Assembly (NCBI RefSeq): GCF_963506605.1
Contig: NC_083281.1
Coordinates: forward strand, 24,614,001 to 24,678,000
Direction: 5' to 3'
Length of the DNA: 64,000 bases
Origin: Zootoca vivipara
Taxonomy: Eukaryota
Position numbers and translations under genes: made by a program
In this document: positions 11,648 to 59,411 of the stretch, in pieces
Numbering within the stretch: the stretch's first letter is position 1
How the letters are laid out: every line of letters begins with the position of its first letter
The notes under the pieces: model-generated
Databases searched by the model: none
Told to the model about the DNA's origin: nothing
Seen by the model: only the letters and a program-made list of their open reading frames with translations

Positions 11648-12712
11648 TCAGTGCTCAGAGGCTTTTGCAAAAACATTCTCCGCATCTTCCTCGACATCTT
11701 GCAGAAAGCATTGCAGCATGAAGTAGATGGTTCTGAAAGAATCAGCTCCACTAACTAAATTGCCCAACACAGGTATGAACTCAACAATCTGTTCTAGCAC
11801 TGTCTGTGCTTTCCACACCTCTGACCTGGCCAAGAGATCAAGTACAAATTCTTCGCTGATCTCATTAGCCAGTGGAGACTTCTTAATAACTGATTTCAGC
11901 TCACTTAGAGGTTTACCAACCCGGTTTGCAAGCCTCCTCAGGGACTCTTCATCCAACCCAAAAGCCATGCAGAGCTTTTTGAGTGTTGTCAACAAGAAGG
12001 AAACATGGAAAGATAATAGGAGAGTTAACCGATTCACAGAGCCAAAATACAAAGCCACAAGGGCCTGCTTCCAAATAAGGTTCCTCATCTCAATTTTCTT
12101 CTTCTTCAGGATATCTCTTGAGAATGTTGGCATTGAGAGAAGGAAGGCGTGTCTTTTGAGATGATCTAGTTCATTCTGCAAGGTTTCTTGCAGAATGGGG
12201 AAATCATACATGCTCAAATCCCAATTTGATATCAGAAAAACCTTTGGAGAAGCCTCTCCCAGTTTTCTCAGTTTATCGCAACAGTCTTGCCTTAAGTCCT
12301 TAAGTGTCTCCATTTCATTGAAGGTGGGTCTCCTTCTTTCAGCAGCCATGCTAAGATTAATTTTAGGGTGCACATAGTAAAACTTCTTTTTCATTTTCTG
12401 AATCTCACGTGCCAGCTGGGTGTCACTCTCTGTAAAGCGTTCTGAAGCAATGATAAAGAAATCGTATTTGCTAAAATCTACCTTCTCCAGATATTCATCT
12501 GCTCTGAATTCATCTGTTCCAATTCCTGGTAGATCCCATAGTGTCACCTTGGGAAACTTCGGGTGCTGATATTTTTTCGCAATCATGGTTGTCTGTTTCA
12601 GCCCTACCCTAGCTGAGCCCTCTTCAAAATCTGTCATACCCCGCAAGGCATTGACAAGAGAAGACTTGCCAGCACCTGTACGCCCTGTGATGGCAATGTC
12701 AAGTGTGGCATT
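11648..12712 (-). CDS. IRG (IRGC-like) G-domain plus C-terminal helical domain; 3' part of the terminal exon of the tandem IRG gene
   Basis: G1 GRTGAGKS, G3 WDLPG, YDFFII, altered G4 HPKIN, FLISNW, LKRHAFLLS, FGLDEESL; reads in frame with 13559-13694 once the hAT and one TSD are removed. Confidence 0.85.
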   Translation of the reverse strand, partial: NATLDIAITGRTGAGKSSLVNALRGMTDFEEGSARVGLKQTTMIAKKYQHPKFPKVTLWDLPGIGTDEFRADEYLEKVDFSKYDFFIIASERFTESDTQLAREIQKMKKKFYYVHPKINLSMAAERRRPTFNEMETLKDLRQDCCDKLRKLGEASPKVFLISNWDLSMYDFPILQETLQNELDHLKRHAFLLSMPTFSRDILKKKKIEMRNLIWKQALVALYFGSVNRLTLLLSFHVSFLLTTLKKLCMAFGLDEESLRRLANRVGKPLSELKSVIKKSPLANEISEEFVLDLLARSEVWKAQTVLEQIVEFIPVLGNLVSGADSFRTIYFMLQCFLQDVEEDAENVFAKASEH

Positions 12713-12720
12713 GCCTAGCA

Positions 12721-13558
12721 CAGGGGTCTGCAACCTTTAAGACAAAAAGAGCCACTTGGACCCGTTTCTGAAGGAAAAAAAATAAACTGGGAGCCGCAAA
12801 ACAGGGACGTAATTAGAAATCAGAGGGCCCCATAGCAAAATTTGCTATGCCCAATAATCAATGCCCCAAAATGCCATAGAAAATTAATCAGGGCCCCAGT
12901 GTACCATAAATCATAATCAGTGCCTGATGTAAATAATAATTAATAATGAGGGCCCAATGTCATCCTCGTCATTATAAAAATAACTTTGAGTTTGGGCTGC
13001 CTTGATTACTGGGAATGGGCAAAACTCTGACTCCCTTATTAGGACACCTGTATGGTTTCATGTGTGTTGCTCCCATCAAGTGAACTTATAAAATTTCCTC
13101 ATATTGAATGAACCCATTGATTAATACATCTACCTCAATCTCCTGACCAGGCCGGCAGGAGGCCACAGGCAGGCCGCAGGCAGGAGCAGCAGCAGCAAAC
13201 AGGCGCTCCGAGCCCGCAAGCCTTTTCTGTTGCTGGGCGGGAAGAAGCGCGCCCGTTTTAAAAAATAAATAACTCCGCCCCCACCCCCATGAGCCTATTG
13301 GCTGCAGAAATGCGGCGGGGAGGGGCTGATGCAGGGAGGGGGCCGACCACGCTCCCCGGGCTGCTAACGTCACCTTGCGTCCTTTTTGCACAGCGGCGGT
13401 GGGCACCGTGCGAGTGTCTGGCGGGCGTGGCGGGCGCCGCCACATGGCTCAGGCAGCGCATGGCTCGGACGCCTCCTCCCCTCGTATCCGCTCCGGAGCC
13501 GCAGCAAAGGTGTAAAAGAGCCACATGCGGCTCCGGAGCCGCAGGTTGCAGACACCTG
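12721..13558. mobile_element. 838-bp non-autonomous hAT (Charlie-like) element inserted in the IRG coding exon
   Basis: TIR CAGGGGTCTGCAACCT / AGGTTGCAGACACCTG; perfect 8-bp TSD GCCTAGCA at 12713-12720 and 13559-13566. Confidence 0.95.
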
Positions 13559-13694
13559 GCCTAGCAAATCTAACTCTTGCCGAATCTGAGCTACCACATC
13601 TGGGAGATTTCTTTGTCTTAAAACAGCCTTCATATTTTCCAAGTCAGCATTAAAGATGGCAAGCCACGTGGCTCTTCTTGATGTATCACTTGAT
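13559..13694 (-). CDS. N-terminal helical segment of the terminal IRG exon, upstream of the hAT insertion
   Basis: Acceptor TTTTTTTCTTTCCTAG|A; encodes ...ADLENMKAVLRQRNLPDVVAQIRQELDLLG, which aligns with DLAEVKAALEQKKLEDVSAEAQQQSNLLK of the 42532 paralog. Confidence 0.8.
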
Positions 13695-16169: not shown

Positions 16170-16850
16170 CTATCAAGTAACTGGTTTAGTACTAAGGCAC
16201 GCCTCTTGAGATCAGTAAATTCTTCTTGCAGGGTCCTTTGCAGGAGGGGGAAATCATACATGCTCAAATCCCAATTTGAGATAAGAAAGACCCTTGGAGG
16301 AGACTCCCCGGCCTTTGCCAGATTTTCACAGTAGTATTTCCTTATTTCCTTAAGGGTTCTGTCCTCCGTGAAGTGTGGGTTTCTTTTTTCGTCAGCTATA
16401 CTGACATCCACTTTGGTGCGCACATAGAGAAACCTCTTCTTCCTTTTCCTAATTTCACGAGCCAACATGGCATCGTGCTCGGTGAAGCCTATTTCGCCAA
16501 CAATGATGAAGAAATCATACTTTTTGAAATCCATGTCTTTTACGTATTTCTCTGCTGCAAACTCCTGTGTTCCGATTGCTGGCAGATCCCAGAGAGTTAC
16601 GTCGGGGTCGCTGGGGCACAGGTACCCTTTGAGTTCCCTAGTACCTTGTATCATATCAACCACGGCGGCACCCACCTCATTGTCTGCCATATTGCACAGG
16701 GCATTGACCAGGGATGATTTGCCGACACCTGGCCCCCCAGTGATGGCAACGTCAAGGCTACGTCTGCCTGGTGGGTGTTTTCTTTGAGCTGATGTGTCTG
16801 ATTGGGAGCTCTTAGCACCCATAGTTGCTCCTCCGGGACATTCATCAGGT
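16170..16850 (-). CDS. IRG G-domain-only cassette exon B (681 nt, phase 2-2)
   Basis: Acceptor TTCTGTTCTTACTTAG|A, donor AG|GTATGT; G1 GGPGVGKS, G3 WDLPA, G4 TKVD, FLISNW; internal MGAKSS; no C-terminal helical domain. Confidence 0.85.
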
Positions 16851-17952: not shown

Positions 17953-18620
17953 TTATTGTGGATCTTCCTTCCTGCGTCCTGGGGTGGTAATAAGGCATGC
18001 CTCTTGAGATCAATACATTTGTCTCGCAGGGTCCTCTGCAGGAGGGGGAAATCGTACATGCTCGAATCCCACCTTGAGATGAGAAAAACCCTTGGAGGTG
18101 ACTCCCCGGCCTTTGTCAAACGTTCACAGCAATCTTTCCTTATTTGTGCAAGGGTTTTCTCCTCATTGAAGCTTGGTTTCCTGCTTTCAGCATATATAAT
18201 AACATCCACTTTGGTGCACACATAGAAAAAACCCTTGTTCATTTTCTGAATTTCGCGGGCCAGCATGATGACATCATCAGTGAATCTTCTTTCGCCAACA
18301 ATGATGAAGAAATCATACTTTTTAAAATCCATACCCTTTATGTATCTCTCTGCCGGAAACAGAGGTGGTTGAATCCCTGGTAGATCCCAAAGGGTTACAT
18401 CTGGATATTGGGGGTATAAGTACCCTGTTGGTTCCATAGTACGTTTTATCACATCGACCATAGCTGCCCCAGCATCATCGTCTGCCATATTCCGCAGGGC
18501 ATTGACCAGGGATGATTTGCCGACACCTGAGTCCCCTACAATGGCGATATCAAGGGTATGTTTTCCAGATGGCTCATTCATTTGAGCTAATGTGTCTTGT
18601 TTGCAGCTCTTACAAGCCAT
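17953..18620 (-). CDS. IRG G-domain-only cassette exon A (first coding exon, starts MACKSC)
   Basis: Acceptor TTCTTATTTAG| at 18648, Kozak GCCATGG at 18620, donor AA|GTATGT at 17952; G1 GDSGVGKS, G3 WDLPG, G4 TKVD, FLISRW. Confidence 0.85.
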
Positions 18621-19061
18621 GGCTGCTCTTCTGTGAGATTTATCACACCTAAATAAGAACAGAAATATTGCAGCAGTTAACACCTTCTGCATCTAAGTCC
18701 TCTTTTAAAACAGCTGGATCGATTGCCAGTTCATTTAGAGGCCCAGTTCAAACTACTCACATTAGTGTTTAACTCCATTGATCATTCCAAGGAAACCATA
18801 TTCTGGGTAAGCACTGGAACCCCTGGAATCTCTCACCGAACAGAAATTGGGGTGCAGGCAACATTGTAGTTATTAAAACTTCTTAAATAAATAGCTTTAA
18901 CAAATGCTCTTGATATTCCTGTACAGCTTCATCTACATCTCAGTTTTCCTGCCTAAACCCCCTGAAATGGCTGCAATGCTTTGATGAGAAGTTTTCAAAC
19001 TGCATAACTTGGACTTCCTGTCCTGGTGAGGGTTTCTCCTGGAGAGAGCAGCTCTTATATA

Positions 19062-29108: not shown

Positions 29109-30291
29109 ATTGATCTTTAAGACACACACATACAAGAGGGAGATAGAGCATTTCATTTCCTTTGCCCATTCAGACTACTTATTTCACAGAAGAGGGAAAC
29201 CCTTGGCATTGCATTTCGATTTTTGTCTGCTTTTAGAAAGAAGGGGGGGGGGAGAAAAACCTGTAAAAAAATATATAGAACATTATCATTACTTACACAG
29301 CACTGATGCCAAAGCATAGTAATGTGTATAAACAATATTTTGTTATTCATACCTTGCTGTCTTTCTCAAGGGAAACTTTTTAAAAAAATCATTATATTCT
29401 CCTATGGAAGCTTTAAGTTCTTCTCCTTCTCCTTCATTTGATTTCTCACCCGACCCTTTGCAATAAAGTCCCATGGGTGGATTGCAACAATCTAAAGTGC
29501 AATGTTAGAAACGGTTTAAAACACCCGGAGGTGTCTCTTCAGCATGCAAACACTGTTGAATGGGAATGATACAATGAAGGTGTTGGTCACACACTTGTAG
29601 GGAGGGAATTCCACAATTCAGGGGCTGTCATTTGGGGCCTAAGTCATTTTAGGGCATTAATCACTAGTGCAATAGTGATTTAAATTGGCTATGCACCAAC
29701 AGCTTATATGATGCTTCTTTTTTGCCCTGGGAGAAATGAAAGTCAAGAGTTATAAGTCAAAAGTCAGTTTGAGGGCCACATTCCGTACAGTCAAGCAAGA
29801 GGCATTATCAGAGTTCAATGGCATAAACATGGAGATGTGAAGTAGGGCAGCTGAGGGGTGTGGCCTGAGGAGAGTTCTGAGGGCCATATAGAGAGGCCTG
29901 GAGGGCCACATTTTGCCCAAGGACCTATGGTTCCCTACCCGTGAACAAAAAAAGGGAAGCAGGCTTTAGAGGTCAGAGCCAGGAAGCCCTAATTTCCCCC
30001 CATCCTGATAACCTCTCACATAATTTTTTTTGGATGGAAATAAGGCCCTATTTATAACATAAACATTATTCAAGACAACGTTGGCCCATTTTCTCTTTCT
30101 CCAAATATCCAGCCCAGAGCTGAGCTGGAAACATGGCTCTCTAAATGAAAAAAAGGTGCCCTGTTTCATGCTATCTCCTCAGATGATGTCTCAGATGTGG
30201 AACACATTGTCCCACAATAAGTGAAGCTTGTTTAATGTCTCCTTATGTGTTGCATTCTCTCCCCTTTCCTGCCAGGCCTCGACACGATCCT

Positions 30292-31530
30292 ATGGCAGTT
30301 CAGCCACCGCCAGATTCCCAAAAGCAAGCCTCTGCATGTGCAGAAGAATATGATATCATCACTGAAGAAGACATCGAAGAGATTAGGAATGCACTTGAAG
30401 GAGGAAGAATGGCAGAAGCAGCGTCCAAAATATTGGAAAACCTGCAGAATTTGGAGCATGCCCGGCTGGACATTGCAGTAACAGGAGAGGCTGGCGCCGG
30501 CAAGTCCTCATTTGTCAATGCCATTCGAGGCCTAGGGGATGAAGACGAAGGATCTGCCGCCACTGGGGTTGTAGAGACCACGATGGTGCCCACTCCTTAT
30601 CCACACCCCAAGCACCCCAACGTGATTGTGTGGGATCTGCCCGGAATCGGGACTCCAGATTTCCAGTCCAGCACTTACCTGGAGCAGGTCAACTTCTCCC
30701 GCTATGACTTCTTTATTCTCATTGCCTCAGAACGCTTCAAGTCCAACCATGCCCATTTGGCGCAGGAAATCCAGCAGATGGGCAAATGCTTCTACTTCGT
30801 GCGCTCGAAGGTAGATGCAGATCTAGAGGCCACCAAAAAGCGCCGGCCAAAAGCCTACGACGAGGAGGCGATACTGAGGAAGATTCGAGAGAATTGCGAA
30901 GCGTGCCTTCAGGCCGAAGGAGTGGCTGCTCCCCAGGTCTTCCTCCTTTCCAGCTGGGAGCTAAAAAAGTACGACTTCATAAAGCTTGAGGAGACGCTGG
31001 AGAAGGAGTTGCCGAGCCACAAGAGACATGCCTTCCTCATGGCCCTGCCAAACATCTCTTTGGCCATCTTGCAGAAGAAGAAAGAGGCCTTGCAGAAGCA
31101 AATCTGGAAGCTGGCTACCGTCTCATGCGGAATAGCAGCTGTGCCCATCCCAGGCCTCTCTGTAGCTTGCGATACAGCTATTCTGGTTAAGTCTCTTTCG
31201 GAATACCGTCAGAACTTTGGCCTGGACGAAGAATCCCTCGGCAAATTAGCTGAGAAAGTTGGCAAGACTGTGGAGGAGCTTAAAGAGGTGATCAAGTCAC
31301 CACTGGCCAAAGAAATCTCCAGGGACCTTGTAGTGAAGATGCTAACCAAAGCCGGTGGTGGGGCGTTGATGCTGGTGGAGTACTTTGCCAGCACAATCCC
31401 TGTATTTGGCTCCATGACAGCTGGAGGGATATCCTTTGGAACCACCTATTACATGCTTTACAGCTTCCTAGACGAGGTGGCAGGTGATGCTCAGCGTGTC
31501 CTCATCAAGGCCTTTGAGTCTGATGTTTGA
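30292..31530 (+). CDS. Immunity-related GTPase, IRGC-like / interferon-inducible GTPase 5-like (412 aa, canonical GKS type)
   Basis: Acceptor CCCTTTCCTGCCAG| at 30276, so the real ATG is 30292; G1 GEAGAGKS, switch I AATGVVETT, DLPG, SKVD, complete C-terminal domain (VPIPGLS, FGLDEESL). Confidence 0.93.
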   Translation: MAVQPPPDSQKQASACAEEYDIITEEDIEEIRNALEGGRMAEAASKILENLQNLEHARLDIAVTGEAGAGKSSFVNAIRGLGDEDEGSAATGVVETTMVPTPYPHPKHPNVIVWDLPGIGTPDFQSSTYLEQVNFSRYDFFILIASERFKSNHAHLAQEIQQMGKCFYFVRSKVDADLEATKKRRPKAYDEEAILRKIRENCEACLQAEGVAAPQVFLLSSWELKKYDFIKLEETLEKELPSHKRHAFLMALPNISLAILQKKKEALQKQIWKLATVSCGIAAVPIPGLSVACDTAILVKSLSEYRQNFGLDEESLGKLAEKVGKTVEELKEVIKSPLAKEISRDLVVKMLTKAGGGALMLVEYFASTIPVFGSMTAGGISFGTTYYMLYSFLDEVAGDAQRVLIKAFESDV

Positions 31531-41575: not shown

Positions 41576-42531
41576 CAAATGTTGAAGTTGGGGAAGGGAA
41601 GTTTCATCTTTAGTCCTTTACTTTAGTCCTGTTGCACTTTAGTCCCAGCACTTTAGTCCTGTTGCAAAATCGCCTCCCCATATCAGTTCAAACAAAAAAA
41701 TAAATAAAAAGCTACTGATAACACCCCCCAGTTAATGAATCATGGAGTTATGTCATACAGAATGTCTTTAATTCAAAAAAGGGTTTTATGCTCTCTCTTT
41801 TCCTTTAGCTGTATTTCATTTATTTATTTACTCATTATATTTATATAGCTTTCGGGAGAAGATAATGTTGCTGATAATGGGTTGTCTTCAACTAACATTT
41901 ACTCAGAGTAGACCTATTAAAAAGTAATAGACCTTAGGCATGGTTATAAATTTCATTGAGTCATTGCTGAGCAAAAGTTAGTTGACAAGAACTGAATGTG
42001 GATATTTTCCCCAGTACTGAATATGTGGATATTTTCCCCAGAACTGAATGTGGATATTTTATTGGTGACATTTGTGAAAGTGGCAGGGCAAGACTTGGCC
42101 AGAATATACTAGGGATATGCACAGTGCATTGGCATATTTATTTATGAAGTGTTTTATCCAAAGTTTTAGCCAAAAATTGGAATCTTTAGTGGGGTGTAAA
42201 TGCTTCCTTTAGACACATCTCTAGAAGCATGAACAATTTGAGTTCAAAAAAGATCCACATCTCACATAAACATGTGTTAAGGGTGTGAATGCATGCACAT
42301 ATAGATTTTTGAGAGATTGACAACAGGCACAATTCTTCACTTTATTGAAATACCGTACTACCAACTGCTGCTCAAACAACCCAATGGTAGAGACATGCCC
42401 TATGTAAATTGATTTTTCCACATAAACCATGGATTGTAAAGATGTCCATAAAAGTGTGTGGAAAGCTATAATCTAACTATTAGAGTTTTCTTCTCTTTCT
42501 CAGATAAACTGAACCACGAGGAATCACTGTC

Positions 42532-43764
42532 ATGGATCCTGCCATAACAATAGAAAGCTTAAAAAAAGACCTTGCTGAAGTGAAGGCTGCTTTGGAGCAA
42601 AAGAAATTAGAAGATGTTTCGGCTGAAGCTCAACAGCAGTCAAATTTATTAAAGAACATCAGGTTGGCAATTGCCATCACAGGAAGTTCAGGTGCTGGGA
42701 AATCATCTTTCGTCAATGCCCTGCGAGGAATGAAAGATCGTGCAGAGGGGGCAGCTAAAACGGGGGTGAAAGAAACAACAATGGTGCCACAAGAATATTC
42801 ATACCCCACATTCCCCAACTTCAAAATTTGGGATCTACCAGGAATTGGAACAGTTAAATTTAGTGCAAAGGAATACCTAACAAAGGTCAATTTCAGCAAT
42901 TATGATTTTTTCATCATTGTCTCCTCGGGACGCTTCACTGAGGATGACACCAACTTGGCTCTTGAGATCCAGAAAAATAAGAAGAAATTCTACTATGTGC
43001 GTAGCAAAGTGGATGTCGATATAGATAATGACAGGCGGTCAAAAGGCATCGATTTGGAGGACACCCATGAGGTGATGCAGTCTGAGAAGGAAACTCTTGA
43101 CACTGTACGGAAAGATAGCTATGATAATTTGAAGGCGTTAGGTGTGTCTTCTCCAAGGGTCTTTCTAATATCGAGGTGGGATTTGAGCAAGTATGATTTC
43201 CCCCTGCTTCAAGAGACCTTTGAAAAGGAACAGGATGAACTCAAGAGAGATGTTTTAATCATGTGTCTTCCGATTTTAACAAAAGATAGCATTAAAAAGA
43301 AGAAGGCTGCTATGGAGAGCCTGATATGGAAAAAAGCCATTGCAAGTTGTGCTGTTGGGTTGATTCCGCTCCCACTCCTCTCGTTTGGTTTTGACATTTC
43401 CATTGTGGTTTCGACAATGAGGGATATCGGCAAAGTTTTTGGCTTGGATGATTATTCCCTCAATATACTAGCAAACCGAGTGGGGAAACCTGTTGAGGAG
43501 TTGAAATCTGTTATTGAACATACCCCAAGCACCGATAAGATCACGGCAGAATTCGTCATGGATATCTTGAAGAGTTCAGCAATGTGGGGAACAATCACAG
43601 TGGTAGAGATGGTTCTGGATTTCATACCTCTGTTGGGGTCTCTCTATGGTGGGGGCAGTTCTTTTGCTACCACATTCTACTTGCTGAAGAATTTCCTGGA
43701 AAACGCTGTGAAAGATGCAGAGAAAGTTCAGGCAAAGGCTGCTGAGCCCAAGAGACACAAGTAA
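42532..43764 (+). CDS. Immunity-related GTPase, IRGC-like (410 aa, canonical GKS type)
   Basis: Acceptor TTCTCTTTCTCAG| at 42504 with an in-frame stop before the ATG; G1 GSSGAGKS, AKTGVKETT, DLPG, SKVD, complete C-terminal domain. Confidence 0.93.
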   Translation: MDPAITIESLKKDLAEVKAALEQKKLEDVSAEAQQQSNLLKNIRLAIAITGSSGAGKSSFVNALRGMKDRAEGAAKTGVKETTMVPQEYSYPTFPNFKIWDLPGIGTVKFSAKEYLTKVNFSNYDFFIIVSSGRFTEDDTNLALEIQKNKKKFYYVRSKVDVDIDNDRRSKGIDLEDTHEVMQSEKETLDTVRKDSYDNLKALGVSSPRVFLISRWDLSKYDFPLLQETFEKEQDELKRDVLIMCLPILTKDSIKKKKAAMESLIWKKAIASCAVGLIPLPLLSFGFDISIVVSTMRDIGKVFGLDDYSLNILANRVGKPVEELKSVIEHTPSTDKITAEFVMDILKSSAMWGTITVVEMVLDFIPLLGSLYGGGSSFATTFYLLKNFLENAVKDAEKVQAKAAEPKRHK

Positions 43765-53815: not shown

Positions 53816-56800
53816 TCAACCACCCAAGAGTCCCAGCTTGACACGCAGGTTCTGGAAACTCTGTCTTGGCAGGGGTTTTGTTAGGATGTCTGCTGTCATC
53901 TCCGATGTGCAGCAGTACGACAGTTCGACAAGTCCATCTTGTATCATTTGGCGAACGTAGTGGTACCTGACCCCAATGTGTTTTGAGCGTGCTAGGAACT
54001 TCTCATTCTGCGCCAGCTTTAGACAGCTTTGGTTGTCCTCCAGCAGGCTTATAGGTTCCTTTCTCTCCACGCCAAAGTCTGTTAGGAGTTGGTCCAGCCA
54101 GGAAATCTCTCTGCACGCTTCTGTAGCCGCAACATATTCCGATTCTGTAGACGATAAAGCTATACATTTCTGTTTATAACTGCCCCATGTGATAGCTCCG
54201 CCCCCATACATAAAGACATGCCCGCTTGTGGATTTATAATCAGAATTATCACCCGCCCAGTCAGCATCAGTGTACCCAATGAGCTTAGGGTCACTGACAG
54301 CTGGTAACTTTAATTTACAATCCATTGTACCCTTAAGATATCGAACCACCCTCTTCACACCAACCCAATCATGCTCAGTGGGACTACTCACTTTCCTGCT
54401 GAGAATCCCTACTGCATTGGCTAAATCAGGTCTGCACGTGGTAACTAAATACAAAAGTTTACCAATCGCTGAACGATACTCTGTGTTGTTTGGCAGCAGC
54501 TTCGAATCCTCTTGGTTCTTTAAGAAGTCTGTAGCCATCGGGGTGTCGACGGGTTTCGCATCCTGCAATTGCATACTCTCCAACAGTTCAATTATCTTTT
54601 GCTTCTGATTAAGTAGAAATGAACCATCCTGTTCTCTTTCCACTTGAATCCCGAGGTAATACTCAACTGGTCCTAATTCCTTCACTTGCACTTCCTTGTT
54701 GAGGTGCTGGACTACATTTTTATAATCCCTGTCATTTGACGTTGCGATTAAAAGGTCGTCAACGAAGGCAAGAATATAAGAAAATTGTCCATTACTCTGC
54801 TTAGTGTACAAACACTTGTCAGCTTCACCTTGCTTGTACCCAAGTTTCACCAGCATTCCATGCAATTTCAAGTTCCAGGCTCTGGCTGCTTGTTTTAAAC
54901 CATACAGTCCCTTTTGAAGCTTGCAAACCAAATGTGCCTCATTTGGCTTTATAAAACCTTTAGGCTGCTTCATGTAAATTTCTTCAGAAATTTCCCCATG
55001 CAAAAACGCAGTAGCTATATCGATGTGTTTCACCTCCATCCCTTTAGATGCTGCGATGCTTAAAAGTAATCTTACGCTACTGTATCTTACTGTCGGTGCA
55101 AAGACTTGGTCATAGTCGTGGCCATATTGCTGTGAAAAACCTTGTGCCACTAGTCTTGCTTTGTAACGTTGCACCTCCCCTTCTGAACCCCTTTTAACCT
55201 TGAACACCCATTTGCTCCCAATTGCTTTCTTACCAGCAGGTAATTCTGTGAGTGTCCAGGTCTTGTTCTTGTGCAGTGCGTCAATCTCCTCCTGCGCGGC
55301 TTTCCTCCAGAGACTAGCTTTGGTGGCTGGCATCTGCTCTACCTCTTCCCAAGTGGAAGGTTCTGGTGGAGACGCCGACCCTGCAAAGTAGGACAGTCGT
55401 AGTGGCGGAACACCCTTGTTGGTTCTGGATGAGCATCTGACCTCTGGTTGTGCAACCGCATCAGCATCCTCATCCTCCTCCAACGCTGGCATGTCCACGT
55501 ACAGCTCCTCCTCTTCGTCTCTGGTGCCGCCAGGGGTCTGGACCTCTGCGTCTTCTGGGGTGTCGCCTGTAGGGGGTGTTGTGACACTAGAAGGTATATT
55601 AGTTCCTTGTGCTAAAGGAAAACTTATAAACTCTTCATCTGGTGACTCTCTAGAACAGTCAATAACAGTGTTCTTTGTATCAAACTTTCCTAGTTCATCA
55701 AAATGAACCACATGGTATGGGTCTACTCTGCCACTCTTTGGATCTAGAACTCTATATCCCTTTCCTCCAGGAGCATATCCAACCAGGATACCTGCTTTTG
55801 CTCTGGAGTCAAGCTTGTGTCTGCGCTCTTTGGGCACATGGTAATAACAGACACTTCCAAACACACGTATGTGCTGCAGACTTGGGACTCTCCCGTGCCA
55901 AAGTTCAAATGGTGTGCGTTCTGCACCCTTTGTAGGCAATCTGTTTTGCAAATAAATCGCCGTATTCGCCGCTTCACCCCATAGCTTCTGTGACAAGTTG
56001 GCCTCTTTTAACATGCACCTTGTCATCTCCATAATAGACCTAAACTTTCTCTCAGCAATGGAGTTCTGTTGAGGCGTGTAAGCAACTGTAGTTACATGTG
56101 CTATGCCTTCTTGTGCCATGATGGCCTTCATCTGCCGTGAGCAAAACTCTCCACCATTATCCGAAATTAAGGTGGAAGGAGCTCTCTGGAATTTGTTCTT
56201 CACCATGTTTAAGTACAGTTTGAACAATTCCGGTGTCTGACTCTTTTCTTCTAGAAAATATCCAACACTATATCTTGAGAAGTCATCTATAAATATCAGA
56301 ATGTACTTATTGTTTCCTAGGGAAGGTACATTCAGCGGACCACATAGGTCAGTATGAACAGTGTCCATGACTTTTGTGCTTCTCTTCTCTGTACAACGTG
56401 GGAAGGAAGGCTTGACTGCCTTTTCAGTTATGCAAGTTGTACAGTTTGGCATTGGTGTACTGCAATTCTTTACCTGTAGACCTTTTACCAGATTTTCCTT
56501 CTGCATTTTCAGGATAACGTTGGTGTCCCTGTGTCCAAGCCTTTTGTGCCAGAGTTCCAGATCTGGTTGATCCTTTCTGCTGGGTTGTGCAACCCTTGCA
56601 GACTCATTCTCTGAAATATCAATCTCATACACATCATTGATTAGTTTGGCTTGAATAAACACTTCACCATCTTTTATCACATTGCATTGTCCATTTTTAA
56701 ATATAATTTCAAAACCTTTCTTGTCCAAGCTAGACACACTTATTAGATTACAGTTCAGCTTTGGTGCATACTTAACATTACTCACTGTAGTATCAAAAGA

Positions 56801-57394
56801 CTCATTGTTCACTTTGAAATTCAAGTTCAAAGATCCTGCACCTATTGACTTTATAACATTTCCATCAGCAATTTCAATCTCAGACTGTTTATTATTGTCT
56901 ATTTCATTGAAATATTCCCTTTTATAACAGAAGTGGCTGCTTGCTGCACTGTCCAGAAGCCACTTATTGCGCTTTCCTTCACAGCTCTGGAAAGCTACAT
57001 TTCTTTCTTGCAATATCATTGCACGCCCACGACCCCCCTTCTTTTCGCCTTTTGGTGGAAAGGGGCGGGATTCATTCTTTGTAGATGCTCCATACTTGCG
57101 CTCAATATCCTTTAAGATTTGCGCTGCATCATCTCTGCTATTAATTGACGTTAGATGCTTATTGCGAAGTCCACTCAAAATTATGTGTCTGGCCTCGCTG
57201 TTCATGCGTTTCCAAGTTGCTATCTTTGCTAAATCCTCTTCTGCTTCGCCAGTAGGCATAGGATTTTCAATGGCATCCAAAACATTCCTTGCATCTAAAA
57301 ATGCTATCAGGCGTTGTTTCCAAAATACGTAATTGTGGTCATCTAAAGCCATTAATCCTAGGTTAACTCCACTATCAAAATCTGCAAAAGCCAT
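53816..57394 (-). CDS. Copia gag-pol polyprotein (1192 aa; gag internally shortened)
   Basis: Gag N-terminus NYVFWK, protease LLDSAAS, HKRLGH..CTTC, integrase HTDLCGP/SDNGGEF/AER, RT YKARLVA/LYGLKQA/FVDD, RNase H YTDADW/ADILTK. Confidence 0.95.
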   Translation of the reverse strand: MAFADFDSGVNLGLMALDDHNYVFWKQRLIAFLDARNVLDAIENPMPTGEAEEDLAKIATWKRMNSEARHIILSGLRNKHLTSINSRDDAAQILKDIERKYGASTKNESRPFPPKGEKKGGRGRAMILQERNVAFQSCEGKRNKWLLDSAASSHFCYKREYFNEIDNNKQSEIEIADGNVIKSIGAGSLNLNFKVNNESFDTTVSNVKYAPKLNCNLISVSSLDKKGFEIIFKNGQCNVIKDGEVFIQAKLINDVYEIDISENESARVAQPSRKDQPDLELWHKRLGHRDTNVILKMQKENLVKGLQVKNCSTPMPNCTTCITEKAVKPSFPRCTEKRSTKVMDTVHTDLCGPLNVPSLGNNKYILIFIDDFSRYSVGYFLEEKSQTPELFKLYLNMVKNKFQRAPSTLISDNGGEFCSRQMKAIMAQEGIAHVTTVAYTPQQNSIAERKFRSIMEMTRCMLKEANLSQKLWGEAANTAIYLQNRLPTKGAERTPFELWHGRVPSLQHIRVFGSVCYYHVPKERRHKLDSRAKAGILVGYAPGGKGYRVLDPKSGRVDPYHVVHFDELGKFDTKNTVIDCSRESPDEEFISFPLAQGTNIPSSVTTPPTGDTPEDAEVQTPGGTRDEEEELYVDMPALEEDEDADAVAQPEVRCSSRTNKGVPPLRLSYFAGSASPPEPSTWEEVEQMPATKASLWRKAAQEEIDALHKNKTWTLTELPAGKKAIGSKWVFKVKRGSEGEVQRYKARLVAQGFSQQYGHDYDQVFAPTVRYSSVRLLLSIAASKGMEVKHIDIATAFLHGEISEEIYMKQPKGFIKPNEAHLVCKLQKGLYGLKQAARAWNLKLHGMLVKLGYKQGEADKCLYTKQSNGQFSYILAFVDDLLIATSNDRDYKNVVQHLNKEVQVKELGPVEYYLGIQVEREQDGSFLLNQKQKIIELLESMQLQDAKPVDTPMATDFLKNQEDSKLLPNNTEYRSAIGKLLYLVTTCRPDLANAVGILSRKVSSPTEHDWVGVKRVVRYLKGTMDCKLKLPAVSDPKLIGYTDADWAGDNSDYKSTSGHVFMYGGGAITWGSYKQKCIALSSTESEYVAATEACREISWLDQLLTDFGVERKEPISLLEDNQSCLKLAQNEKFLARSKHIGVRYHYVRQMIQDGLVELSYCCTSEMTADILTKPLPRQSFQNLRVKLGLLGG

Positions 57395-57676
57395 CTTGGA
57401 ATCTCAAAATTCTAAAAATTTCTCAAAATTCAAAAATTTGCCAAAAATTCCAAAGTCAAAAACTCTAAAAATATCTCAAAATGCAAAATAATCTTCACTG
57501 CCTCTGAGTTCTCAGTGCTGTAAACTCTGAGGGAGGGGAGGGGTAGCTAATCCCCTAGGCACACTGGATAACAATAGACCATGTGCTTACCAGGAAGTTC
57601 TAACTGAAAAAATCCTACTCAGTTCAAAAATCACAATCCAAAGCAATCCTTCAAAAATACACAAAAATACGCAGTC

Positions 57677-58080: not shown

Positions 58081-58253
58081 ATTCATACCTTCTACCTATA
58101 AAGCTTTTTTGATTGGCAAATTATAATAATAGGGCCGACGCTGGAAATTTTATGGAGGGCATGCCACTCTCGTTAAATAAATGAATGCTTCTAGTTAGGC
58201 CGGTTGCTTAACATTTTCCTACTTCCTTTCTCTGCAGTGCACCTAGATCCACA

Positions 58254-59411
58254 ATGGTTGAAGACTTTGAGGTAGCCATTTTTCAGGGCCAATTGGCAGA
58301 TGCTGTGTCGCACGTGCTGGCAAAACCACTGCACTTTTTCAACAGCACTCCACTCAACATTGCCGTAGTAGGAGAGCCCGGCTCCGGGAAGTCTTCCTTC
58401 ATCAATGCCATGTTGGGTCTTCATGCTGATGACCCGCGTGCCGCTGCGACCGGCATACAGATGACGACATTGCAAGTCAAGGATTACCCACACCCGACAC
58501 TTCCGCAAGTGATCCTTTGGGACCACCCCGGAAAGGGTACGCCAACTTTTGGGGAGGACAAATCTGAGAAGAAGGCTGATTTAAATCAGTTTGATTTCTT
58601 CTTCATCGTCGGCTCCCAACGCTTCCGCTCCACCCATTCTGACCTGGTCCATGAGATCCAAGATATGGCCAAAAATTTCTACTTTGTGCGCACCAAAGCA
58701 GACCTGGACCTGTCGGCCGCCAAGAGGCAACAGCCATCCGACTACAATGAAGAGAAGGTCCTCTTGCACATCCAGGAGGACAGCAAAGAGTGCTTGGTAA
58801 GAGAAGGAGTGAGGGACCCACATGTCTTCATCGTCTCCAACTGGGAAGCCAACCGCTTTGATTTCCCCCTCCTGCAGGAAACGCTGAAGAACGATCTCTT
58901 GCGGCTGAAGAGGCAAGTCTTTCTGCACCGCTTCCCTAGCATCTGTCTGCCTATCTTAGAGAAAAAGAAAGCCTCTGTGAAGGAGAAGATTTGGACCAGT
59001 AGGCTTTGCTTGCTGGTAACTCTTGGAAGCCCAGTTCCTTTCCTTCTTCCCATGTTTCTTTTTAGTAAGTTCCGCTCCTGGTGCTTCCTAGACTTTGGCC
59101 TGAATGATCGATCCCTTGCAGCTCTGGCCCAGCGTGTTGGAAAGACAAGCACAGCCCTTAAAGCAGCAATGCAGTCCCTGGGAATGTTCTCTGCCATTTT
59201 ATGGGTGCTGCCAGACTTGGTGGGACTCTCAGTGATGGCTTATGAATATCACCGCTGGGAGCATTTCCCCATCTTTGGCTGCCTTCTGTCCGGAGGGGTT
59301 TCACTTCTTCGCACCTACTTCATGCTGCAGAAATGCATATTGGGTGCTGCGGATGACACCCAGAGGGTTCTGTCCAAAGCTCTTGAGGCAGAAGGGGGAA
59401 AGTCCATTTAG
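58254..59411 (+). CDS. Divergent immunity-related GTPase (385 aa)
   Basis: Acceptor CCTTTCTCTGCAG| at 58238; G1 GEPGSGKS, G3 WDHPG, G4 TKAD, FIVSNW, FGLNDRSL; hydrophobic C-terminal segments. Confidence 0.9.
   Translation: MVEDFEVAIFQGQLADAVSHVLAKPLHFFNSTPLNIAVVGEPGSGKSSFINAMLGLHADDPRAAATGIQMTTLQVKDYPHPTLPQVILWDHPGKGTPTFGEDKSEKKADLNQFDFFFIVGSQRFRSTHSDLVHEIQDMAKNFYFVRTKADLDLSAAKRQQPSDYNEEKVLLHIQEDSKECLVREGVRDPHVFIVSNWEANRFDFPLLQETLKNDLLRLKRQVFLHRFPSICLPILEKKKASVKEKIWTSRLCLLVTLGSPVPFLLPMFLFSKFRSWCFLDFGLNDRSLAALAQRVGKTSTALKAAMQSLGMFSAILWVLPDLVGLSVMAYEYHRWEHFPIFGCLLSGGVSLLRTYFMLQKCILGAADDTQRVLSKALEAEGGKSI

Follow-up and report, generated by a model that had tools for sequence, protein, structure and literature searches.

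A lacertid IRG GTPase gene with a polymorphic hAT-like insertion in its terminal coding exon, a probable truncating allele with cryptic sites for splicing

Introduction

Insertions spliced from exons are said to have been described by Giroux in 1994 for maize Ds (a hAT element), by Rushforth and Anderson in 1996 for Caenorhabditis elegans Tc1, and by Fridell in 1990 for Drosophila 412. The locus analyzed here resembles these cases in that an exonic transposon has splice sites in or close to its termini, and in that imperfect removal would leave few residues. It differs in that they are backed by transcripts, whereas this locus is known from its sequence and its best-scoring acceptor is non-productive.

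A second comparison is with the introners of Aureococcus, which, in the sections available of their survey, have inverted repeats, an 8-bp duplication and both splice sites inside the element, as here, and leave a multiple of three in the mRNA, 12 nt there and 18 nt here (PMC9860276). According to the same sections, introner families have working sites in their consensus, whereas the donor considered here is private to one copy (PMC9860276). Working splice sites as a family property were not found (the donor occurs in 1/47 copies), and because of this the element is not a member of an introner family. The available parts of two sources report no vertebrate pattern of introner gain (PMC9860276) and describe recent intron gain as apparently lacking in vertebrates (PMC12130899, PMC9860276). 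A third parallel is the death and resurrection of human IRGM, where, in the portion of the source available, an IRG gene was broken by a mobile element and a later change might reopen it, as here; the elements in that case were an Alu and an ERV, and expression was shown, whereas here the DNA transposon is polymorphic and any rescue is a matter of sequence (PMC2644816). No lizard case of an exonic transposon of this kind was found in the literature searched, most subscription journals lying outside its scope.

The window analyzed was a 64,000-nt stretch of the Zootoca vivipara genome (GCF_963506605.1, contig NC_083281.1, positions 24,614,001 to 24,678,000, forward strand); positions below are those of the window unless stated otherwise. 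An earlier note on this DNA had read the element as a possible new intron or alternative acceptor and not as a knockout. Here, a truncated protein from an allele that has cryptic splice sites, not gain of an intron, is considered the best explanation (probability about 0.6).

The host gene

The host is an IRG GTPase gene of lacertids that encodes three G domains, and the element lies within its last coding exon (Table 1). All three units matched Pfam IIGP (PF05049; E = 7e-87, 1.6e-54 and 2.3e-59), and the G1, G3 and G4 motifs that go with this domain in the IRG (p47) class were found, G4 being TKVD in units A and B and PKIN in the third; the gene is thus a predicted IRG (p47) GTPase. Among the matches listed, the closest proteins were Podarcis models (85-88% identity), and the insertion site is empty in the Podarcis orthologs. 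The Podarcis raffonei 852-aa isoform has identical exon joins and an unbroken ELDLLSNATL. An empty site in Zootoca encodes 849 aa (exons A and B plus the terminal exon), and the 3-residue excess of the Podarcis model matches 9 nt missing at 13653, where the 5' part of the terminal exon is shorter than in the two empty alleles described below (X7 and X15). Thirty IRG matches were found in the genome, 29 of them on the gene's own contig; the nearest paralog outside the host gene was 54% identical.

IRG units spliced into tandem are known in mouse and fish: in the available part of the source, units of Irgb2-b1 and Irgb5-b4 (mouse) and irgg-irgq1 (zebrafish) are joined in frame by splicing, as here, although the lacertid gene is composed of two G domains and one full unit, versus two full units in the mouse tandem genes (PMC1297648).

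Two further observations concern the coding sequence. G4 of the third G domain reads HPKIN (Asp to Asn; 12368-12354, minus strand), in Podarcis too, and this change was found in 6/131 homologous terminal units. An Asp to Asn change of G4 in mouse Irga6 moves binding towards xanthine nucleotides, in the excerpt available (PMC3042988); by analogy, the third G domain might serve across lacertids as a GTPase that is weak or has a regulatory role. In exon B, an internal MGAKSS (16823-16806, minus strand) fits the MGxxxS myristoylation motif. Its Met is missing in the Podarcis raffonei and P. muralis models, and a P. lilfordi model begins nearby; a shorter transcript beginning at exon B is possible.

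Table 1. Positions of gene, element and splice features in the window, in gene order. Scores, in bits, were computed with an approximate human matrix.
Feature	Positions	Strand	Remarks
Exon A, first IRG G domain	17953..18648	-	ATG 18620; phase-2 donor, last base 17953; join shared with Podarcis raffonei 852-aa model
Exon B, second IRG G domain	16170..16850	-	internal MGxxxS; G3 = DLPA; phase-2 donor
Terminal exon, 5' part, N-terminal helices of full IRG unit	13559..13694	-	native acceptor 13694
Target-site duplication, gene-upstream copy, 8 bp	13559..13566	-	exact
Non-autonomous hAT-like element, 838 bp	12721..13558	-	16-bp inverted repeats with one mismatch
Private donor CAG/GT	13550..13558	-	last exon base 13556; phase 0; 5.6 bits; G>T at 13554
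Family-consensus donor AAG/GTGACG	13368..13376	-	last exon base 13374; phase 2; 6.9 bits
Branch-point-like CTAAT	12811..12816	-	A at 12813; 27 nt before AG at 12786, 46 nt before 12767
Top-scoring acceptor, non-productive	12767..12782	-	exon start 12767; 13.8 bits; 17/20 pyrimidines
Acceptors AAG/12734 and CAG/12727	12727..12748	-	family consensus; phase 2, 9.8 bits (12734); phase 0, 2.6 bits (12727)
In-frame TAA	12737..12739	-	blocks all acceptors upstream of it
Target-site duplication, gene-downstream copy, 8 bp	12713..12720	-	exact
Terminal exon, 3' part	11648..12712	-	third G domain (G4 PKIN) and C-terminal helical domain; stop-free

The element and its family

As had been claimed, the element divides ELDLLG/NATLDIA: taking out its 838 bp together with one duplication rebuilds that peptide. 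Four substitutions and an 86-nt deletion are private to this copy. At least 110 exact left and at least 159 exact right family ends were counted in the genome. With 40/276 candidates scored, the full-length matches listed first were 91-93% identical and partial ones up to 99%; the family is young. The 8-bp duplication was exact in 44/47 copies with both ends and had at most one mismatch in 47/47, with a preference for a central TA. Both an 8-bp target-site duplication and short terminal inverted repeats, as in hAT elements, were found here, and the assignment as hAT-like is made by ends and duplication only. The family may resemble the Charlie branch of hAT.

Relatives of 2.55-2.72 kb with the family ends and 8-bp duplications were found (L053, L054, L056-L058, L062, L067 and L069). 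No transposase-like frame was seen by eye in the 2 of these that were read, in which simple repeats were present, and none of the 12 hAT dimerisation-domain loci fetched (of 74 matches) carried the family ends. An autonomous partner was thus not found among the relatives and hAT-domain loci inspected.

Insertion polymorphism

A check for presence/absence polymorphism had been proposed earlier. Of 23 sequencing runs listed, eight were compared with the window (X5, X7, X13-X15 and X21-X23). One contig from another study of the same species (X7) joins 12713 to 13560, skipping 846 nt, and an empty-site contig from a second species (X15) likewise skips 846 nt. Because the site is empty in another animal of Zootoca vivipara, the insertion is polymorphic in the species. 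A further contig of the same species (X5) runs from 12200 to 12739, 19 bases inside the element, and lacks the empty joint; since these 19 bases fall below the 31-letter rule applied, X5 is only a likely carrier.

Splice sites within the element

The earlier note had named acceptors at 12734 and 12727 and a CAG/GT donor in the other inverted repeat (13556/13555), and their dinucleotides and phases were as it described. Its account mentioned neither the stronger acceptor (12767) nor the in-frame stop codon TAA (12739-12737), nor donor 13374, and it missed that both acceptors are family consensus and that the donor in the inverted repeat is private.

The native acceptor (12.8 bits on the same approximate human matrix) ranks below 12767 and above 12734, with 12727 last. 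Acceptor 12767 was created by a CpG G>A change at 12769, which was found in 3/45 other readable copies; without it, 12734 would rank first among the acceptors of the element. All YTNAY branch motifs (at 12820, 12813 and 12783) precede acceptor 12767, and the branch point is described as selecting the first downstream 3' site in the available part of the source (PMC2685110). Donor 13374 is the highest-scoring in the element and overlaps the read-through stop (13372-13370). When family copies were put in silico at this site, 27/27 yielded at least one in-frame, stop-free GT-AG pair, and because of this such pairs are generic here, no more than expected by chance. Since this copy gained both donor 13556 and acceptor 12767, mutation since insertion has made sites that favour rescue and sites that oppose it.

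The change behind the private donor is at position 5 of the inverted repeat. The donor base at 13554 was found in 1/47 full copies (this one) and in 2/112 left-end matches genome-wide, the second without family membership, and the GT at the consensus position, two bases further on, scores -2.8 bits in this copy. Of the 2514 single changes that are possible, just 7 would yield a productive donor that was absent before and scores at least 5 bits. With 4-12 substitutions, the chance of any comparable donor is about 1-3% and that of the exact base 0.2-0.5%, post hoc figures for a window that was chosen because it looked rescuable. The private donor is the best argument for the birth of an intron, though one made after the fact.

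Intron gain under way would mean that this donor pairs with CAG 12727 and that the resulting protein is kept by selection. The geometry worked out earlier is exact: 13556>12727 removes 828 nt, leaves QTPVLG (18 nt in the mRNA) and gives 855 aa. It is also the geometry of Aureococcus introners, in which both sites are inside the element and codons are added, as the available sections describe (PMC9860276). However, a mid-strength donor would have to use the weakest candidate acceptor, which is preceded by 5 AG-free nt, with a further AG lying 7 nt upstream; splicing from that donor to 12734 or 12767 shifts the frame (507 and 518 aa); and the same G>T was found at the opposite end of an unrelated copy (L072), the chance figures being post hoc in any case. 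We regard this reading as improbable. That a living lizard species shows the birth of a spliceosomal intron, from a polymorphic transposon and one inverted-repeat change that restores a near-native 855 aa, is accordingly a long shot. If true, it would be a segregating transposon-derived intron with its enabling mutation identified and with filled and empty alleles in one species, and the steps of intron birth would be testable in an amniote.

Predicted products

Unspliced read-through was confirmed to give 557 aa, with the stop ending at 13370. Joins to 12767 gave 566 aa from 13374, 518 aa from 13556 and 459 aa from exon B. Truncated products (459-566 aa) resulted for each of the 8 donors paired with this acceptor, because the in-frame TAA follows it.

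In the preferred reading, a truncating allele, exons A-B-C would be joined at the strong native acceptor 13694 and the message would enter the element, where translation would halt. Any splicing into the element would go mostly to the top-scoring acceptor, 12767, with 566, 518 or 459 aa as the outcome. Neither the third G domain nor the C-terminal helical domain would be present in any of these truncated products. Junction-dependent decay would not be expected, since the stops fall in the last exon, and the allele would likely persist in the species because the gene is within a large, fast-evolving IRG cluster. What stands of the earlier reading, intron or alternative acceptor in place of knockout, is that in-frame routes exist on paper and that one of them depends on a private base of the inverted repeat, a feature more striking than had been claimed. 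Against it are a best-scoring acceptor that precedes an in-frame stop and the empty allele in the species. If truncation holds, the polymorphism is of an ordinary loss-of-function kind, in an anti-parasite gene cluster that evolves fast, and has modest value for lizard immunogenetics.

Leaky rescue at 12734 is a less likely, if plausible, alternative. A minority of messages joined as 13374>12734 (918 aa, with 69 extra residues) or from exon B (16170) to 12734 would leave the allele weakened, not null, as maize Ds alleles are said to be. The second join gives the in-frame 811 aa without N-terminal helices that had been calculated before. Both joins are in frame and stop-free, and they use the top donor and the second-best acceptor in the element; a 13374-type donor with 12734 as the best in-frame pair was found in only 3/27 of the copies placed at this site, and arises here via the 86-nt deletion. 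Two skink models join a G domain straight to the next, a linkage like that of the 811-aa form, although they retain helices at the N-terminus and the 811-aa form has none. Acceptor 12767 moreover scores higher and is nearer the branch motif, and the 69 element-derived residues, which matched no Pfam family, would sit inside a length-conserved segment.

That segment was examined in the predicted structure of a Podarcis ortholog (mean pLDDT 74), where the site falls at the end of helix 256-271, 3 residues before the first G-domain strand. Mouse Irgb10 aligned gap-free across the site, and terminal IRG units were of equal length across it in 128/129 cases, the remaining one being 7 residues longer. 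Because the segment is length-conserved and at the helix-to-first-strand junction, 6 or 69 extra residues at this site would be nearly without precedent and may be harmful. Insertion-derived residues were found in none of the annotated proteins inspected (120/160 and 13/13 matches listed).

A truncated two-G-domain product (557 or 566 aa) could itself be functional or regulatory, with the allele maintained for it. Exons A and B are intact, and a truncated tandem irgg-irgq1 and a short human IRGM are described in the available part of the source (PMC1297648), but such maintenance is indistinguishable from drift here, and we give this reading very little weight.

Transcript evidence

None of the data sets listed as holding this DNA was recorded as RNA. 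The 16170>12734 and 13556>12727 junctions were sought in five RNA or likely-RNA runs (X21-X23, X13, X14) with cover near zero at these positions, and none was seen. In the raw reads of X21-X23 (about 6 in 100 read), exon depth was 0-4 and native junctions were likewise not seen. Contigs from X13 and X14 (likely RNA) covered parts of 11914-12706 and crossed no junction. There was low-level transcript cover of the region downstream of the element, and RNA reads on the element itself bear the letters of other family copies. As a separate observation, X21 shows good transcription of another family copy whose target site is similar, with 74 loose-end reads at 12714 (window 12714-13400).

Selection and decay

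The second species' empty allele (X15) had 23 nonsynonymous and 5 synonymous changes of its own (36/44 differences listed), and the lineage of this genome had 6 nonsynonymous and 2 synonymous (8/12 X7 differences listed), for 783 nonsynonymous and 232 synonymous sites. A dN/dS near 1 for 11648-12712 in carriers, which the earlier note would have taken as a sign of lost function, was ruled out as a test: it cannot decide because empty alleles also differ mostly nonsynonymously, with a ratio near 1 between them too. The 1065 nt downstream (12712-11648) were confirmed to be stop-free; this was likewise ruled out as a sign of function (P = 0.70 for 8 random substitutions).

Among the changes listed, this lineage had 0 nonsynonymous differences in the third G domain, versus an expectation of 1.1-2.2 had the domain lost its function at insertion (P = 0.11-0.33); 7/8 lineage changes were outside that domain (P = 0.015), a pattern as in functional alleles; the counts are drawn from 40/85 differences listed, and the changes may predate the insertion. 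This is a weak sign of ongoing constraint that would fit leaky rescue at 12734. P51S was found in the likely carrier X5; this proline is conserved in 122/133 homologs. Neither the constraint on the third G domain nor P51S decides function.

In the C-terminal helical region (12082-11670, minus strand), differences between alleles and species were almost all nonsynonymous, and the G domain was conserved; the pattern suggests that this region is under positive selection.

Other features of the window and its cluster

The large IRG cluster (C6:24.1-24.93 Mb) has equal-scoring 418-aa frames every ~51.7 kb (24700124, 24751806 and 24803476); this spacing suggests either a segmental duplication of recent date or a repeat in the assembly. 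Stops are present in two other copies in the cluster. A 1195-aa open frame at 53816-57403 (minus strand) is, by its look, presumably a copia-type retrotransposon polyprotein. Three more single-unit IRG frames are present in the window on the plus strand (30187-31530, 42508-43764 and 58212-59411), the last of which has DHPG at G3.
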